This document shows, piece by piece, positions 47-9,719 of a DNA stretch of 64,000 bases. Where the stretch lies: NCBI GenBank assembly GCA_963817255.1, contig CAWFNT010000001.1, forward strand, positions 67,456 to 131,455, read 5' to 3'. Position 1 is the stretch's first letter. Every line of letters starts with the position of its first letter. The notes under the pieces are model-generated. The model saw nothing but the letters and a program-made list of their open reading frames with translations. It was not told the DNA's origin and made no database searches. The translations under genes and the position numbers were made by a program. The DNA is from an uncultured Actinomycetes bacterium. GTDB lineage: Bacteria; Actinomycetota; Coriobacteriia; Anaerosomatales; CAVRZR01.

Positions 47-193
47 CTGGCACGAGATCGCTGCGCTGGTCCTGTCCACCGTCGTTACTTCGGAGGCTGC
101 GACCGCCTAAGGCGGCGGCGTTTTGGGAGACGTGAACCCGAACGCGGAGCCAGCATGCAACGCATGAGCGTCGCTGTCTCGCAGCGATGACCC

Positions 194-224
194 GAGAGGG
201 CCGTTCCCATGGAGCGGCCCTCTC
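194..224 (+). terminator. GC-rich stem-loop, probable terminator
   Basis: Inverted repeat GAGAGGGCCGTTCC-cat-GGAGCGGCCCTCTC. Confidence 0.55.
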
Positions 225-266
225 ACTCTGTCTGGGAAGCGGGGGATCTGGCCGCGGGATGTGACC

Positions 267-291
267 GGTTCAAATCCACGATGGCCCACCA
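267..291 (+). repeat. tRNA 3'-end fragment (att-like site, copy 1)
   Basis: GGTTCAAATCCACGATGGCCCACCA = T-loop, T-stem 3' side, acceptor 3' side and CCA; upstream sequence does not form D or anticodon arms. Confidence 0.8.
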
Positions 292-656
292 TAGAAACAG
301 CAGGTAGAGGGCTTGATTCGGGAGTACCCGGCAGGCCCTCTGCGTCGTTTCAGAACGCGAAATGTAGCAACGCGTGTAGATATCGTCGCTGCGAGACGGA
401 CGTGTGAAGCCGCGCCTGGAGCCTGGTTAGGCTCGGCGGCTGCGATCACGCGAGCGGCCGAGCGACCTCCGAACCCGCGGGATCCGGCCGCTGCGATTCT
501 TCAGTCACCGCTTGCCGATGAGTTCAGCGAGTTCGTGTTCGGACGTCGCGCGACAACACACGCGGAGCGAGCTCCACCGACGCGGCCTGGAGGGGCTCTG
601 ATACGCTTTGAGGCATCAGCAGCGCGGAGACGTTGCCTCCAAGGCGGGGATACCTC

Positions 657-1481
657 GTGAGTGCATTCGGCGCATCGTGCAGAGAGGTCCGAGGAGCCTA
701 TCGGCGATACGGGATGCCGAGAGTCCCACGGCAGGTGCTCGAATACGTGGCCAGACGGATCCACCGCCCTCGTGACAGCCGGATTAGACAGCTTCTCGAC
801 GACCGCTTCGACGAGGAGTATGCAGTCGAAACGGCTGGCAACATCTCTTTCTCATCGCTCGATGCCCCGCCCGACCGCGTAGCGCACGCTGCGGCCTACC
901 GGCCCATCTATCCGGCGCCGTTCCTAGACCTCATCCATCAGCTCCCCATCGACTTCGAGGAGTGGACATTCGTCGATTTCGGATCCGGAAAGGGCAGGGC
1001 GGTACTGCTTGCGTCTGAGTTTCCATTTCGCAAGGTGGTCGGAGTCGAGTTCTCGCCGTCGCTCCACGAGACTGCGCAGAGGAACCTTGGAACATACCGA
1101 AGCGCAACCCAGAGATGCAGGAACATCGAACTCCTGTGCTTGGACGCAGCCGCCTATGAGATCCCGCGGACGCCTGCGGTCTTCCACTTCTACAACCCGT
1201 TCGGCAAACAGGTGATGGCCGAAGTCGCCCGGAACATCGACCGTTCACTGCAGGAAGCGCCGCGAGCAGCCTTCGTGGCCTACTTCTACCCGGAGGTTGC
1301 CGGGGTGTGGACGACCTGCAAGACCCTCGAGGCATATCCCGTGATTCAACCGGTCTGGCCGACCTGGCACCCGCCGGGGCAAGTCGCCAGGGTCTTTGCT
1401 GCGGCGAACAGCGATCACAGAAGCGGCCCGGTCTGCGGAGAACAGCGCCTCCGTTCATCGAGAAGCCGAACAGCGGGCTAG
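657..1481 (+). CDS. Class I SAM-dependent methyltransferase
   Basis: Motifs FVDFGSGKGR, VVGVEFS and FHFYNPF; GTG start after GGGGGA (start uncertain). Confidence 0.8.
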   Translation: MSAFGASCREVRGAYRRYGMPRVPRQVLEYVARRIHRPRDSRIRQLLDDRFDEEYAVETAGNISFSSLDAPPDRVAHAAAYRPIYPAPFLDLIHQLPIDFEEWTFVDFGSGKGRAVLLASEFPFRKVVGVEFSPSLHETAQRNLGTYRSATQRCRNIELLCLDAAAYEIPRTPAVFHFYNPFGKQVMAEVARNIDRSLQEAPRAAFVAYFYPEVAGVWTTCKTLEAYPVIQPVWPTWHPPGQVARVFAAANSDHRSGPVCGEQRLRSSRSRTAG

Positions 1482-1521
1482 GCCTGTCACGCGGGCAGGT
1501 ATCAGAAGGAGGCAGCAGACT

Positions 1522-1677
1522 ATGTGGTGGGTCGTAGGTCTTCTTGTTGCGCTGTGGGCGCTGGGGATGATCACCGGTGTCACTCTCGGTGGCGCCATCA
1601 TGCTGCCGCTCGCGCTCGCGTTGCTTCTCGCCATGTATCAGCTGTTCGTCGTCATACCGAGGGACTGGCGTCGGTAG
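1522..1677 (+). CDS. Small two-helix membrane protein, lmo0937/DUF5670-like
   Basis: AGGAGG RBS; MWWVVGLLVALWALGMITGVTLGGAIMLPLALALL.. Confidence 0.7.
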   Translation: MWWVVGLLVALWALGMITGVTLGGAIMLPLALALLLAMYQLFVVIPRDWRR

Positions 1678-1830
1678 CCCACACTAGACCGGATGACTGT
1701 GCTGTCGGCGATCGGCGGCCATCGCTCACAGGCGCCAGACTCGGGACGTCTTCGACAGAAGCACCGCCGTCTTTCTCGGACTGAGGATCCCCGTGTCACG
1801 TATTACCGGCCTTCCACGAATGCGCCGCCA

Positions 1831-1865
1831 AGGTTACAAGTACGTCCACTATGGCCCACCAGCAA
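1831..1865 (+). repeat. tRNA 3'-end att-like site, type A (copy 2)
   Basis: AGGTTACAAGTACGTCCACTATGGCCCACCAGCAA; 32/35 identical to 3082-3116. Confidence 0.85.
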
Positions 1866-1955
1866 CCGAGGGGGACTCCGCAAACGCAGGGCCCAATGTC
1901 ATATCCTTCTGTACGGGTGTCACCGGCACCGTACGGTGCTTCGAGGGGAGCTGCT

Positions 1956-2639
1956 ATGCGCGGTCTCGGTAAGGTCGCAATCGTCGCGACAGGCTTCGGC
2001 GTTGCTGCGTGGGCGCTGGCGCTCATGCCGAGTTGGATCTGGGTCATCGCGTCTGGCTTTCAGCAGCCAGGCACAAACTGGTTGCCCATTATCGGCGCGC
2101 TACTCGTGCCGACCGGCCTTCTTATCGCATTCGGTTGGTGGCTGATTGCGAGGCGCGATTGGCTATCAGACCGGCTGTTCGATGACGCGGACACCCCGAT
2201 TGCAGTCGATGGACCCGACCTCCTGCGCGTCGGCATCATCATCCTCGGCCTCGGGCTCCTCATCGTGTCGATCCCCCGTCTACTCGGCACCATCGGAACA
2301 TGGGGTACGTACGCAACGCAGCAACGCGCGGCCGATCAGATGACGATTGTCGAGAGCCCATGGCCGACGCTTGCTGCCGCGGCGGCTATCGGGCTCGTGC
2401 AGCTGGGCGCGGGTGTGCTGTTTCTGCGGCGGTCCGACGCGATAGCGAGGCGACTCTGGCTACCTAGGCGAGTGACTAGGCCTATACCAGGAGAGATGTC
2501 GGCGTGCCCCGCATGCGGCGCCAGCTTCGACTCTGGAGACTACGAAGACGCGAGCTCGGCACGGTGCGCCGCGTGCCACTCTCCGCTCTACCCGGAAGGC
2601 GCCCGGACAGCGCATCCAGGGGATGGTCGCGAGGTCTAG
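1956..2639 (+). CDS. Hypothetical membrane protein with C-terminal zinc ribbon
   Basis: About 4 hydrophobic segments; CPAC..CAAC at the C-terminus; GGGGAG RBS. Confidence 0.7.
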   Translation: MRGLGKVAIVATGFGVAAWALALMPSWIWVIASGFQQPGTNWLPIIGALLVPTGLLIAFGWWLIARRDWLSDRLFDDADTPIAVDGPDLLRVGIIILGLGLLIVSIPRLLGTIGTWGTYATQQRAADQMTIVESPWPTLAAAAAIGLVQLGAGVLFLRRSDAIARRLWLPRRVTRPIPGEMSACPACGASFDSGDYEDASSARCAACHSPLYPEGARTAHPGDGREV

Positions 2640-2688
2640 GTTTCGAGTAGAGCGCATCCGCAGTCGCGTGGGTCGCGGGCGTTTCCTG

Positions 2689-2719
2689 CGGTTCGAAACT
2701 CATCAACTATGGCCCGCCA
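2689..2719 (+). repeat. Degenerate tRNA 3'-end att-like site, type B (copy 3)
   Basis: CGGTTCGAAACTCATCAACTATGGCCCGCCA; 24/31 identical to 3716-3746; core matches consensus at 15/17. Confidence 0.7.
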
Positions 2720-2829
2720 TGAATGAGAGGACGCCCCTGAGGGGTCCATCTGGAGGACTCCGAAGGGGTGTTTTAGCTGGTAGAGGCCCCTCCCTCTCGG
2801 CAGTGCTAGGGAAGGTCTCAGACGGCGCG

Positions 2830-2964
2830 TCAGCCGGTGAACAACTGGATCACGAGGACAATCACAGCAATAACCAACAACGCGTGGATCAGTCTGCCGC
2901 CGATGTGGAACAGCAGTCCGAGTAGCCACAGCACGAGCAGTACTCCAATGATCGCCCACAACAT
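2830..2964 (-). CDS. Small membrane protein, lmo0937/DUF5670-like (44 aa, below the ORF-track cutoff)
   Basis: MLWAIIGVLLVLWLLGLLFHIGGRLIHALLVIAVIVLVIQLFTG; GGAGGTG RBS. Confidence 0.8.
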   Translation of the reverse strand: MLWAIIGVLLVLWLLGLLFHIGGRLIHALLVIAVIVLVIQLFTG

Positions 2965-3081
2965 CCGAAACACCTCCAGGTCTGGGGTATCTTCTTTCCC
3001 GTCCACGGCTCTCTGAAAACGCCCCTGCTAAGGGGAGCGCTGGGGTTCCTAGTGAGCCCCTCGGCCGTCAGTGCCGACCGC

Positions 3082-3116
3082 AGGTCACAAGTAAGGCCAC
3101 TATGGCCCACCAGCAA
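3082..3116 (+). repeat. tRNA 3'-end att-like site, type A (copy 4)
   Basis: AGGTCACAAGTAAGGCCACTATGGCCCACCAGCAA. Confidence 0.85.
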
Positions 3117-3137
3117 GATTTCGCCACGTGAGCTACC

Positions 3138-3692
3138 GTGCAATCACTGTACGACTCTGCTCATGGAGGCTTTGGCGTGCCGACGTTCTTCTACGACGCC
3201 GCTTACACTGTGATCTTCCGCTGGCTCGGATTCGGGATGCAGGAACTGTTTGCGGCCGCCATAGCGGCCTCCGTTGCAGCCGCCGTCCTGCTCTGGTGGA
3301 GTGCGGCTCTGGTGCGTGGGAGCGGAGCAGTCCGAGTTCGCAGCACGGCGATTGCGTGGTTGGGCGCCGCCTGTGCGTTCGTGGCTGCGACCGCCGCGTA
3401 TCAGCTGTTCTACTTCCCGGTGACGCACTTCCTGAGTTCATATCCGGCTGTAGGGGTGGCGCTGGCGGCTGCAACGCTCTTGCTGCTCGTGGCAGTCGTA
3501 ATCTCGGTATGGTCCGTGTTCGCGGCAGGCCGACCCGATCGGACGACTCGTCTCCTGAGATTCGCGAGACACGCACGGCTCGTCGCCTGCGTGCTGGCTC
3601 TGATCTGCGTGGCGTCGCTCGGCTGGTCGTGGGTGGACCTGTTGCGGCTCATCGCCGCCGGCCGCGCCGCAGCGGCCGCCGTGGGCCGATAG
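3138..3692 (+). CDS. Hypothetical multi-pass membrane protein (start uncertain)
   Basis: 4-5 hydrophobic segments; fills the interval between att-like copies 4 and 5. Confidence 0.6.
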   Translation: MQSLYDSAHGGFGVPTFFYDAAYTVIFRWLGFGMQELFAAAIAASVAAAVLLWWSAALVRGSGAVRVRSTAIAWLGAACAFVAATAAYQLFYFPVTHFLSSYPAVGVALAAATLLLLVAVVISVWSVFAAGRPDRTTRLLRFARHARLVACVLALICVASLGWSWVDLLRLIAAGRAAAAAVGR

Positions 3693-3715
3693 CCCGCGCA
3701 CGGGCATGAGTGTCA

Positions 3716-3746
3716 CGGTTCGAGACTCGTCCACCGTGGCCCACGA
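3716..3746 (+). repeat. Degenerate tRNA 3'-end att-like site, type B (copy 5)
   Basis: CGGTTCGAGACTCGTCCACCGTGGCCCACGA; core matches consensus at 14/17. Confidence 0.65.
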
Positions 3747-6946: not shown

Positions 6947-7900
6947 CTACCCGAAGCGCCCAGTGATGTAGGACTCGGTGCGGCTGTCGCCGGGGTTCGT
7001 GAACATCGTCTTCGTGTCGCCCATCTCGATGAGCGTCGCTGGCTCATCCATGCTCTCGCGCAACATGAAGGCCGTACGGTCGGAGATGCGTGCTGCCTGC
7101 TGCATGTTGTGGGTGACGATCACGATCGTCACCGCAGACTTCAGTTCGGCGATCGTGTCTTCGATCTGCTGCGTCGAGATGGGATCGAGCGCCGACGCGG
7201 GCTCGTCCATGAGGAGCACCTCGGGGGCGGTGGCGAGCGCACGCGCGATGCACAGGCGCTGCTGCTGACCGCCGGAGAGTTCGAACGCGTGCTTCTTGAG
7301 TGAGTTCCTGACCTCGTTCCACAGAGCCGCGCGCTCAAGTGAGTCCTGCACCAGATCATCGAGTTCGCCGCGCTTTCGCACACCGTGTGTCCGTGGGCCG
7401 TAGGCGACGTTGTCGTAGATCGACATCGGGAAGGGGTTCGGCTTCTGGAAGACCTGGCCCACGCGGCGCCGAAGCTCGACCGGGTCGACTGAACGATCGT
7501 ATACGTCGATCCCGTCGAGCATGATCGTTCCGCCCACGTGCACGTTTCCGAGTTCGTCGTTCATGCGGTTCAAACACCTGAGCAGCGTGGACTTGCCGCA
7601 GCCGGAAGGTCCGATGAGCGCGGTCACGACGTGTGCGGGTATGCCCATGGTGACGCCCGCGATCGCGGTCTCGCGCCCGTACGCAACGGAAACGTCACGC
7701 AGGGCGAAGCTGCCACCGGCGGGGGAAGCGAGGGCGGTCTCGTGCTCGGCGACGCGCTCGAGGATCGCCTCGGCAACCTCGGATGGCGTCGTCGTTGGAA
7801 GCCCGCTGAGCGGCAGCTCAGAGATACGCTCCAGCTGCTGCGGGCTGCGCGGAAGCGGGATGACCTGGGCCTCCAGGGCGACTGACTGCGCGTTCACCAT
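6947..7900 (-). CDS. pstB: Phosphate ABC transporter ATP-binding protein
   Basis: [41 protein letters not shown]; ends YITGRFG. Confidence 0.95.
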
Positions 7901-8763
7901 CGGATCCTCTTCCTTTGCGCCGAGCGCCACGCGGCGGCGCTCACGTTGATGATGCTGATGCCGAAGACCAGCACGAAGGCCGTCCCCCAGATGATGTCGT
8001 CGGGTCGACGCGGTATCTGTGTCGCGAGAACGTAGATGTGGTACGGAAGCGCCATCACTTTCGAGGACGGCGAGGTGGGGAGTTGGGGCAGTGAGAACGC
8101 GGCCGCAGTGAAGATGATCGGGGCCGTCTCGCCCGCCGCACGAGAGAGCGCGAGGATCGATCCGGTCACGATGCCGGGCGCCGCAGCGGGCAGGATCACG
8201 CGCCCGATCGTGCGTAGGCGCGACGCGCCTACGGCGAGCGACGCCTGCCGGAGGTCGGACGGCACCTGTTGCAGGGCCTCCTCGGTCGCGGTGATCACTA
8301 CCGGAAGGCTCAGGCACGCGAGCGTCAGCGCGCCCGCGACGATCGAGGCGCCGAATCCGGCAGCCATGACGAACACCGCAAGGCCGAACAGGCCGTAGAC
8401 GATAGAGGGGACGCCGGCCATGTTCGCGATGGCGAGCCGGACGAGTCGTGTGGAGCGGCCCTTCGGCGCGTACTCGGAGAGGTAAATGCCCGCACCAATC
8501 CCCACGGGCAGCATGAAGGCCGCCGTGCCGACGGTGAGCAGAAGCGTCCCCACGATGACCGGGAAGATGCCGCCCTGGCGCATCCCCATCCTTGGCGCAG
8601 TGGTCAGGAAGTCCCATGAGATGGCTTGGATGCCGCGAACGAACACCAGTCCCAAGAAGAAGATCGCGGCGCCGACCACAACGAGTGTGGCGCCGCCGGT
8701 GATGACTGCGGCCGCCGTCTGGGCAGTGCGGGCGCGGGAGGCGCGTGACGTCATCGGCGCCAC
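7894..8763 (-). CDS. pstA: Phosphate ABC transporter permease
   Basis: [21 protein letters not shown]; operon position. Confidence 0.93.
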
Positions 8764-9719
8764 TTCCCGCGTTGCCGCTCGAGCACGACATCGGCGGCGA
8801 GGTTGATGACGAACGTGATCGCGAAGAGCACGAGCGCCATCGCAAACAGCGTCGAATAGTGCAGCCCGCCGCGCACGACCTCGCCCATCTCGTTGGCGAT
8901 GGTCCCGGGCAGCGTACGAACGGACTCGAACGGGGTCCTGGTGATCAACCCGGAGTTACCCGCCAGCATGAGCACGACCATGGTCTCGCCGATCGCGCGG
9001 CCGATGCCGAGCATGACGGCGGCGAACACGCCGGACGAGGCAGCCGGGACGACGACCTTATACGTCGTCTGCCAGCGGTTATTGCCCAGAGCGAGCGAAC
9101 CGAAGCGGAGCGACTCGGGGACGGCGTGCAGCGCGTCCTCGGAGATGGAGACGATGGTCGGCAGCGCCATGAAGCCGACGAAGAGCCCGGCCGTGAGCGC
9201 GGTCAGGCCGCTGCTCAATCCCAGCGTGTCCTTCACGAACGGCACGCCCAGGTAGATGCCGATCATGCCCAAGACGACCGAGGGTATCGCAGCCATGAAC
9301 TCGATGATCGACTTCGCGATGTCCTTCATTCGGCCGCCGGCAAACTCAGAGATGAACACCGCCGAGGCAAGACCGAACGGGACCGCGAGGCCCACGGCGA
9401 CCGTCGTGACCCACAGCGAGCCGACGATCGACGGCAAGAACCCGAACGACGTGGGCGTTCCGGTGGGGAACCATGAGTCGCCGGACAGCATGGGCCACAG
9501 GCCGTTGGACGACAGCGCCTGCACCGCATTCGAGGCGAGGAAGACCATGATCGCCCCGAGGATGAGGATCGCCATCCAGCCGCTCAGGTACACGAGCCAC
9601 CGAACGACGGTCTCGGCCGCCAGGCTACGAGCCCGACGACCGAGTACCGCACTCGACCCGGGTGGTCGCGAGGGAGAGGGAGGCCTCCTCGCGGCCACTG
9701 TGGAAGGCGCGTCGTTCAT
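8751..9719 (-). CDS. pstC: Phosphate ABC transporter permease
   Basis: [19 protein letters not shown]. Confidence 0.93.

Follow-up and report, generated by a model that had tools for sequence, protein, structure and literature searches.

The closest described counterpart of the locus examined here is found in Dehalococcoides, where islands with a serine recombinase are inserted in tandem behind the tRNA-like 3′ end of ssrA (PMC3146451). Their recombinase DsiB is CcrB-like, lies on the reverse strand and overlaps the attachment (att) site with its 3′ end, with the result that context determines its stop codon; upstream of each direct repeat lies a conserved motif that cannot be aligned with the target, and 15 of 31 islands carry no integration module (PMC3146451). 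Here we analysed a row of small gene units between five direct repeats at positions 267 to 3,746 of a 64,000-nt stretch (the window) of contig CAWFNT010000001.1, from an uncultured bacterium of the order Anaerosomatales, class Coriobacteriia (genome G000; 1.64 Mb assembly, 62% complete). The repeats are likely the att sites of a large serine recombinase (LSR), intact copies of which lie next to tRNA-Val genes in related genomes.

The present system resembles the ssrA islands in having a recombinase 3′ end that overlaps the att site, an upstream motif foreign to the target, and tandem units without an integration module. This likeness is one of architecture. The targets here are three isoacceptors of tRNA-Val, and sometimes tRNA-Ile, rather than the single-copy ssrA, and the elements combine one LSR with a Rep-like gene, without the six-gene DsiA/DsiB module and its RecF, ParB and Mom homologs. 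Units have a median size of about 1 kb, compared with about 12 kb for the vcrABC islands of Dehalococcoides, and arrays occur at several loci per genome, some of them without a tRNA. One unit of genome G020 is duplicated in two arrays, whereas no within-strain duplicates were found according to the available text on Dehalococcoides (PMC3146451).

Tandem serine-recombinase cassettes between direct-repeat integration sequences are also known from SCCmec and pseudo-SCC elements of staphylococci, in which units lacking ccr are presumed to depend on the recombinase of a neighbour (PMC2900268). Those elements differ in their target, the protein gene orfX, in their size (16-38 kb or more) and in their Ccr recombinases, and the available text notes no overlap between recombinase and att site (PMC2900268). 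Integrative conjugative, integrative mobilizable and cis-mobilizable elements (CIMEs) grow by accretion: an element integrates, decays with its att sites kept, and a new element enters at the same target (PMC5704250). Like CIMEs, the units described here have lost integration and transfer genes, retain att sites and stand in tandem; no autonomous element adjoins the array within the window. In that account, elements at gene 3′ ends such as those of tRNA genes use tyrosine recombinases and site-specific integrative mobilizable elements with serine recombinases disrupt genes (PMC5704250), whereas here a serine recombinase is found at intact tRNA ends.

Repeat sites and the recombinase proposed to act on them

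Five direct copies of a 17-nt core on the + strand start at 275, 1845, 2703, 3096 and 3730 (start-to-start spacings of 1570, 858, 393 and 634), with 1, 0, 2, 1 and 3 mismatches in that order. This is where a sequence-only reading of the window had placed them, and their number is far above chance (0.06 copies expected; 0 of 100 shuffles reached five). That reading took the repeat for a plain tRNA 3′ end, which suits copy 1, the sole window copy with tRNA spacing, but not the longer copies 2-5. The actual repeat spans about 30 nt: copies 2-5 carry a conserved arm that reaches 13-14 nt upstream of the core, out of tRNA register, with 5 extra nt between GGTTCRA and TCCAC relative to tRNA-Val, and GGTTC.AA lies five bases further from the CCA end than in tRNA-Val. 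An intact tRNA heading the array had also been expected, and its absence named as an argument against the proposal; none is present in the window or in the 15 kb upstream of it. Positions 216-291 show no tRNA-like fold (z 0.65), ARAGORN at a lowered threshold gave only spurious tRNA calls among the matches listed, and Rfam returned no hits at gathering score and nothing meaningful by E-value. The minus strand of the head site (267..291) reads WWAIVDLN, resembling tRNA-fused ends of the LSR. Arrays headed by an intact tRNA are present at two other loci of G000.

Related genomes carry intact LSR genes immediately downstream of tRNA-Val, in opposite orientation and with the 3′ end reaching into the tRNA; the far end of the element is the repeat motif. 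The LSR gene of G016 stands directly behind tRNA-Val(GAC), its last codons running into the tRNA, and adjoins a Rep-like open reading frame (ORF; weak Rep_trans match, E 0.0047). The LSR protein (P0001, locus L163) displays resolvase, recombinase and zinc-ribbon domains (PF00239, PF07508, PF13408), all above cut-off, and a PDB match to the A118 integrase (E 4e-7). Nine complete elements of 2.0-6.75 kb extend from an intact tRNA-Val to the motif, and four elements are cut by contig ends. This arrangement was predicted for five newly found elements and fitted all five; in two of them the nearest site was weak (score 14 and 17) and a strong site followed. An LSR, a Rep-like ORF and a small ORF are common to the ten elements compared. 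A search with PF07508 gave matches in 13 of 61 genomes, at 19 places, eight of which hold this LSR family at tRNA-Val (one broken) and one at tRNA-Ile. A class-wide search of 151 genomes detected the LSR in 9, every one a member of this order of Coriobacteriia; the family counts 532 homologs at E <= 1e-60, and the proteins are compact (about 490 aa). The G016 element (L164:8314-9717) carries ORFs that look by eye like a restriction endonuclease and an MT-A70 methyltransferase, and at L187 (G040:C8) a frameshifted LSR element lies between two whole tRNA-Val(CAC) genes 4 kb apart.

The link between these elements and the array is the motif itself. Its minus-strand consensus reads WWAIVD(E/A)(L/F)(R/V/G)T, a sequence found at the C-terminus of intact LSR homologs. 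When the 120 best homologs were sorted by their ends, 56 had the tRNA-fused form, 4 the motif form (WWAI(V/L)D(A/G)L(V/R/G)T) and 1 an intermediate form, with 59 unclassed by the pattern used. Outside the search motif, 17-19 nt before the core, an in-frame stop triplet stands at 60 of 150 distinct sites, compared with 0-12 of 150 at 11 other offsets and a genome background of 1.8%. An LSR tail of 20-45 codons follows 20 of the 150 sites, window site 3 included; the tail there matches by tblastn at 44% over 48 aa (E 3.6e-4) and 62.5% over the last 24 aa, and its coding DNA forms a hairpin after the site. The degenerate scan pattern biases a count of synonymous changes (158 vs 105). At 78 sites that lie outside it, 123 changes fall at third, 58 at first and 32 at second codon positions, a bias that is supportive of a coding origin and could also reflect tolerance in binding. 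The origin of the sites in the LSR is thus well supported, and we regard it as highly probable.

The same comparison suggests where recombination takes place. Like the phage serine integrases (LI and A118), the LSR combines resolvase, recombinase and zinc-ribbon domains and has an outer motif displaced by 5 bp in attB relative to attP; in the LI system the zinc-ribbon (ZD) motif at bp 16-24 of attP lies 5 bp further inward in attB (PMC3783163). In the present case GGTTC stands at -13 in long sites and at -8 in tRNA-Val, a shift seen on the left arms, the right arms showing none that is clear. The 5-nt insert can therefore be explained by LSR attP/attB geometry, which would put the crossover at CC, core positions 10-11. 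Only GCC (positions 9-11) is common to the tRNA and the far-end site in 9 of 9 complete elements (mismatches occur at position 8 in 3/9 pairs and at 12 or 13 in 3/9), which brackets the predicted CC. We take this CC to be tRNA positions 70-71. Two further readings of the repeat were dropped. A resemblance to XerC/D dif sites, judged by eye against the dif consensus, was abandoned once the LSR elements had been found; reverse transcription, considered for the tRNA identity that begins 18 nt before the 3′ end and for which no reverse transcriptase search was made, was abandoned because LSR geometry accounts for the offset.

Based on these findings, we propose, with a probability of roughly three in four, that the repeats are LSR att sites and that the units are recombinase-less descendants of LSR elements, arranged in tandem and probably still movable when a related recombinase acts in trans. 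The circular element would carry an attP made of long arm, CC and right arm, completing the LSR frame (...WWAIVD(E/A)(L/F)RTA-stop), and the tRNA 3′ end would act as attB, with the same GGTTC motif 5 bp nearer the crossover. Integration would leave the tRNA intact and re-targetable, so that newer elements would push older ones outward. Older elements would lose the LSR and the replication genes, keeping both ends and a gene or two.

Sharing of units among arrays and the explanations weighed

The 17-mer has 12 matches in G000, five in the window and seven on contig C4, two of the latter being tRNA-Val genes themselves. Scattering of the motif over the genome had been named as an objection to the sequence-only reading. 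The motif does occur outside the window; the ten long-form sites of G000, all on the + strand, fall in four loci: four sites are in the window, and the rest stand behind tRNA-Val(GAC), behind tRNA-Val(CAC) and at one further tRNA-less locus. The 30-nt pattern (<=3 mismatches) matched 13 of 61 related genomes and its reversed control none. GTDB genomes, scanned for exact matches, yielded 22 stretches, of which 18 have titles naming Coriobacteriia, Coriobacteriales or Actinomycetes and the other 4 Eubacteriales; metagenomes added 49 distinct motif loci. Viral contigs gave 0 motif matches and, by single-protein search, no relative of the LSR. The target had been guessed as tRNA-Ile or tRNA-Lys. 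Arrays stand mostly behind tRNA-Val (TAC, CAC or GAC) and a few behind Ile, Phe or Lys/Glu genes; the main target is tRNA-Val, with Ile(GAT) as a minor one, and not tRNA-Lys. The largest array, with up to 11 sites, is in G001. In G048, a tRNA-Val(CAC) (L047:8052-8126) has an acceptor stem ending in array-type sequence with a compensating 5′ change, which indicates that one relative possesses an intact tRNA of this 3′ type.

Collapsed by exact sequence only, 116 distinct site-to-site units were obtained (48-6,752 bp, median 1,057 bp). A full LSR is present in 4 of them, all tRNA-adjacent, and 112 have none. Window units 2, 3 and 4 recur in the tRNA-Val(TAC) array of G001 in the same order with other units between them (78% identity over 899 nt, 93%, and 86% over 618 nt, respectively), and the homology of unit 4 begins right after its site. 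Unit 3 is 90-94% identical in G000, G001 and G002 behind three different upstream neighbours, above the backbone identity of G000 and G002 (75-82%). A 1,264-bp LSR-less unit is 99.4% identical between L120, where it lies directly behind tRNA-Val(CAC), and L150, where it lies behind a long site; identity starts at core position 9 and the right neighbours differ. The same unit occurs at 88% identity behind tRNA-Val(TAC) in G050, and a 635-bp unit is found end to end in two arrays of G020. Content at the repeats thus varies among relatives in both cargo and neighbours, as had been anticipated. An integrase acting on the units in trans is plausible, and independent movement of single LSR-less units is likely.

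Several observations weigh against this proposal. The relatives are not independent, so the counts are overstated. The window and G001 have the long arm left of unit 2 in common despite different upstream cargo, unit 3 homology ends just before the right arm of that unit, unit 4 homology ends at its stop codon with no site following in G001, and the right arms at L120 and L150 differ at 2 positions. These breakpoints lie away from the predicted crossover, indicating that deletion or homologous recombination also shapes the arrays. None of the four long window sites retains the in-frame stop, and most internal sites are followed not by LSR tails but by hairpins resembling those behind tRNA-Val genes without arrays, left ends for which the proposal does not account. 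In G040, an LSR element with a broken gene has a second whole tRNA at its far end in place of the motif. Neither the assembly of G000 nor G001-G004 (52-97% complete) yielded an intact LSR, and no circle or excision junction was seen; present-day mobility in trans in this genus is therefore something that we infer. Classical serine integrases, moreover, act one way and do not re-use attL or attR without a directionality factor (PMC3783163), whereas here the left junction has evidently been re-used and the right arms look interchangeable.

The genome also encodes an integron. At C4:492439-499281 (L007) we identified a complete integron whose integrase, IntI, is co-oriented with classical attC sites arrayed up to the contig end; six attC sites were matched by pattern and more by eye, and the array includes a MazF-like gene. 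IntI (C4:492439-493440; TIGR02249 above cut-off) is the sole one in G000. The family occurs in 42 of 61 relatives, and its co-occurrence with the arrays is uninformative. A profile built from the six G000 attC sites was applied to 143 long sites. It placed attC-like 3′ ends immediately before 9 of them, compared with a rate of 0.13% in control windows, and attC-like 5′ ends upstream of 8, for which the control rate is 0.8%. No attC was found at the junctions of the window, and a strict pattern found 0 full attC in 116 units. At L080, L188, L134, L159, L076 and L026, degenerate attC sites end directly before the LSR arm, and the LSR stop codon at L080 and L188 falls on the attC R′ box. Integron cassettes may thus be one source of unit cargo.

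How far these elements act together can be read in several ways. Going beyond the proposal above, the arrays could be a serine-recombinase counterpart of the integron, in which tRNA-Val 3′ ends and orphan copies, among them the window head site 267-291, serve as attI-like landing sites, cassettes of about 1 kb end in attP arms, and passing LSRs excise, reorder and move them. No directionality factor would be needed because the right arms would be interchangeable, and the resident IntI would feed in some cassettes by inserting them next to the arm. We put this forward as a tentative possibility. The converse, that the sites are LSR att sites and the units immobile decay products left by a succession of full elements (cis-mobilizable remnants), shared through vertical descent, block transfer, deletion and homologous recombination, seems unlikely to us. 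It agrees with the lack of an LSR in G000-G004, with breakpoints off the crossover, with decayed sites or hairpins in the window, with the shared 2-3-4 order in G001, and with the accretion model in print (PMC5704250, PMC3146451). It does not sit well with an LSR-less unit behind different tRNA-Val isoacceptors, a unit in two arrays of one genome, the 99.4% identical unit with new neighbours on both sides, or the identity of unit 3 above that of the backbone.

The enzyme itself was weighed in the same way. Duplication of a tRNA 3′ end by a tRNA-targeting tyrosine integrase in trans, as the sequence-only reading had it, would suit the tRNA-spaced head site and the TGTAGCAAC repeats after it, which also occur beside a tyrosine integrase at tRNA-Val in G017; in G017 and G020 tyrosine islands do stand at tRNA-Val. 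The att site of those islands is long and runs from the anticodon loop onward, unlike the motif, and the G020 integrase adjoining tRNA-Val(TAC) belongs to an island of that kind. Among 17 regions around tyrosine integrases in 7 relatives, the motif was met in L099 only, where the integrase again belongs to an anticodon-loop island. Given that the 5-bp offset and the coding sequence of the LSR C-terminus are both present in sites 2-5, a tyrosine integrase could fit copy 1 only, and we hold it very improbable. What stands of that reading is its picture of small recombinase-less units left by tRNA-targeting integration, att-bounded and with varying neighbours; the evidence points to an LSR as the enzyme. 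Even less credible is that the IntI of the genome moves the units, with the motif as an attC- or attI-like site. That integrase is intact beside a classical attC array and common among relatives, the motif middle resembles an attC L″ box, and attC-like 3′ ends precede some long sites, but the motif has no attC hairpin and is absent from the integron array itself, units hold no full attC by the strict pattern, and LSR elements end in the motif. It is more likely that IntI supplies some of the cargo.

The window array and its surroundings

The four window units (Table 1) hold one or two small ORFs per interval of 0.4-1.6 kb, in agreement with the sequence-only reading. An arm like the left arm of unit 1 also follows an intact tRNA-Val(TAC) in G042. 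The claim that the array lacks an integrase or transposase holds in that no tyrosine recombinase is present on contig C1 and no intact LSR in the assembly; transposases were checked for seven window ORFs only.

Table 1. Features of the array in the window (coordinates are window positions)
Feature	Position	Strand	Remarks
Conserved small-ORF/structured-RNA element with terminator, 171-nt piece in second copy (96%)	57..227	+	
Head site 1, short attB-type, tRNA-spaced half-site plus core	267..291	+	predicted crossover CC 285-286
Unit 1 left arm, hairpin plus TGTAGCAAC direct repeats	292..380	+	putative arm sites
S-adenosylmethionine-methyltransferase-like ORF, unit 1 cargo	633..1481	+	start maybe 718; Methyltransf_25 E 5.8e-5, below cut-off
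51-aa DUF5670/lmo0937-like membrane protein, unit 1 cargo	1522..1677	+	E 4e-4 to 5e-4, below cut-off
Site 2, long attP-arm	1832..1861	+	predicted crossover CC 1855-1856
227-aa membrane protein with CxxC tail, unit 2 cargo	1956..2639	+	
Site 3, long attP-arm	2690..2719	+	predicted crossover CC 2713-2714
LSR C-terminus remnant YQLKHPFGVLQMDPSGASSHSWRA	2711..2851	-	reads on into site 3 as IVDEFRT
DUF5670/lmo0937 small membrane protein, unit 3 cargo	2830..3006	-	E 7.6e-14
Site 4, long attP-arm, somewhat decayed	3083..3112	+	predicted crossover CC 3106-3107
184-aa hydrophobic ORF without family hit, unit 4 cargo	3138..3692	+	
Site 5, long attP-arm, right end of the array	3717..3746	+	predicted crossover CC 3740-3741

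The genes flanking the array are about 47 bp apart in G002, where the site is empty. G003 has 3.4 kb of other genes at this locus, free of the motif in the part seen (374 nt not covered), and G004 is broken there, with other DNA. The array is therefore an insertion at a variable spot, and it lies just after the 57..227 element. Orphan heads with tRNA spacing like that of the window were also found at G000 C4:164894, in G002 (L041) and at L080, L096 and L162. Most likely the array came in as a block, or it was built up on an orphan landing site, that is, a half-site without a tRNA.

The conserved element (window 57-227; L001:12690-12945) occurs in G000, G002, G003 and G004 and has no Rfam hit. 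A strong anti-16S ribosome-binding site is present, as are a 22-codon ORF that begins with MSS and has many Ala, Val, Ser and Thr codons, a long pairing region and a terminator. In G000, two copies of its 3′-terminal 171 nt (96%) flank a surface-protein gene, which hints at a separate integration event within the element. That gene (L001:13080-15046, ending at window position 46) codes for a series of repeated domains, each about 71 aa long, and is broken up over several frames; it may be a pseudogene or reflect long-read indel errors. Further along the window (6947-9719) lie phosphate ABC transporter genes labelled by eye as pstC, pstA and pstB-like, of which pstA and pstB are seemingly fused or frame-joined in one 632-aa ORF. 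At L099:2529-6778 of G017, adjacent genes for a 785-aa ATPase/nuclease-like protein and a 631-aa UvrD-like helicase adjoin the tyrosine-integrase island, which carries the 3′ half of tRNA-Val(GAC); by eye we take this pair to be Gabija-like. Thirteen sequencing runs were listed, each sharing 0.05-0.07 of the words and none from RNA. Contigs from these runs (4 runs compared at 80% likeness) have loose ends at the site edges 1832, 2688 and 2719 and a weak joint from 448 to 1832 (side 32); they come from other organisms and are not counted as evidence.

Relation to cassette systems and significance

In an integron, small recombinase-less units, most of them with a single gene, are lined up at repeated sites and vary in content, and the sequence-only reading had called the present array integron-like. 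The comparison stands as an analogy: no attC is found at the window junctions, no intI is linked to the array, and hairpins start most units. The present system differs from integrons in using a serine recombinase, in having a double-stranded att arm instead of a folded attC, and in that the recombinase is not fixed beside the array. It likewise differs from tyrosine-integrase islands at tRNA genes, in that copies 2-5 are not an in-register tRNA 3′ fragment and no tyrosine integrase lies inside.

In the open-access literature we found no description of a tRNA-Val serine-recombinase array system in Coriobacteriia, nor any paper combining integrons, Coriobacteriia and attC; serine integrases at tRNA genes are not addressed in the available text of PMC12884075. 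The architecture as such is already in print for the Dehalococcoides ssrA islands (PMC3146451). New here are the three tRNA-Val targets, the units of about 1 kb, the arrays away from tRNA genes and the integron attC-like ends of some units.

These findings name the enzyme, the target and the probable crossover of a common gene-capture hotspot in an uncultured actinobacterial order. The LSR C-terminus, which would differ between the circular and the integrated form, is a candidate control switch, a matter left open in the available text on Dehalococcoides (PMC3146451). Compact LSRs with a predicted ability to enter at a conserved tRNA end, leave it unbroken and permit repeated insertion would be useful for genome engineering. 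If single LSR-less units do move in trans, these arrays would constitute a second bacterial cassette system, one driven by a serine instead of a tyrosine recombinase.

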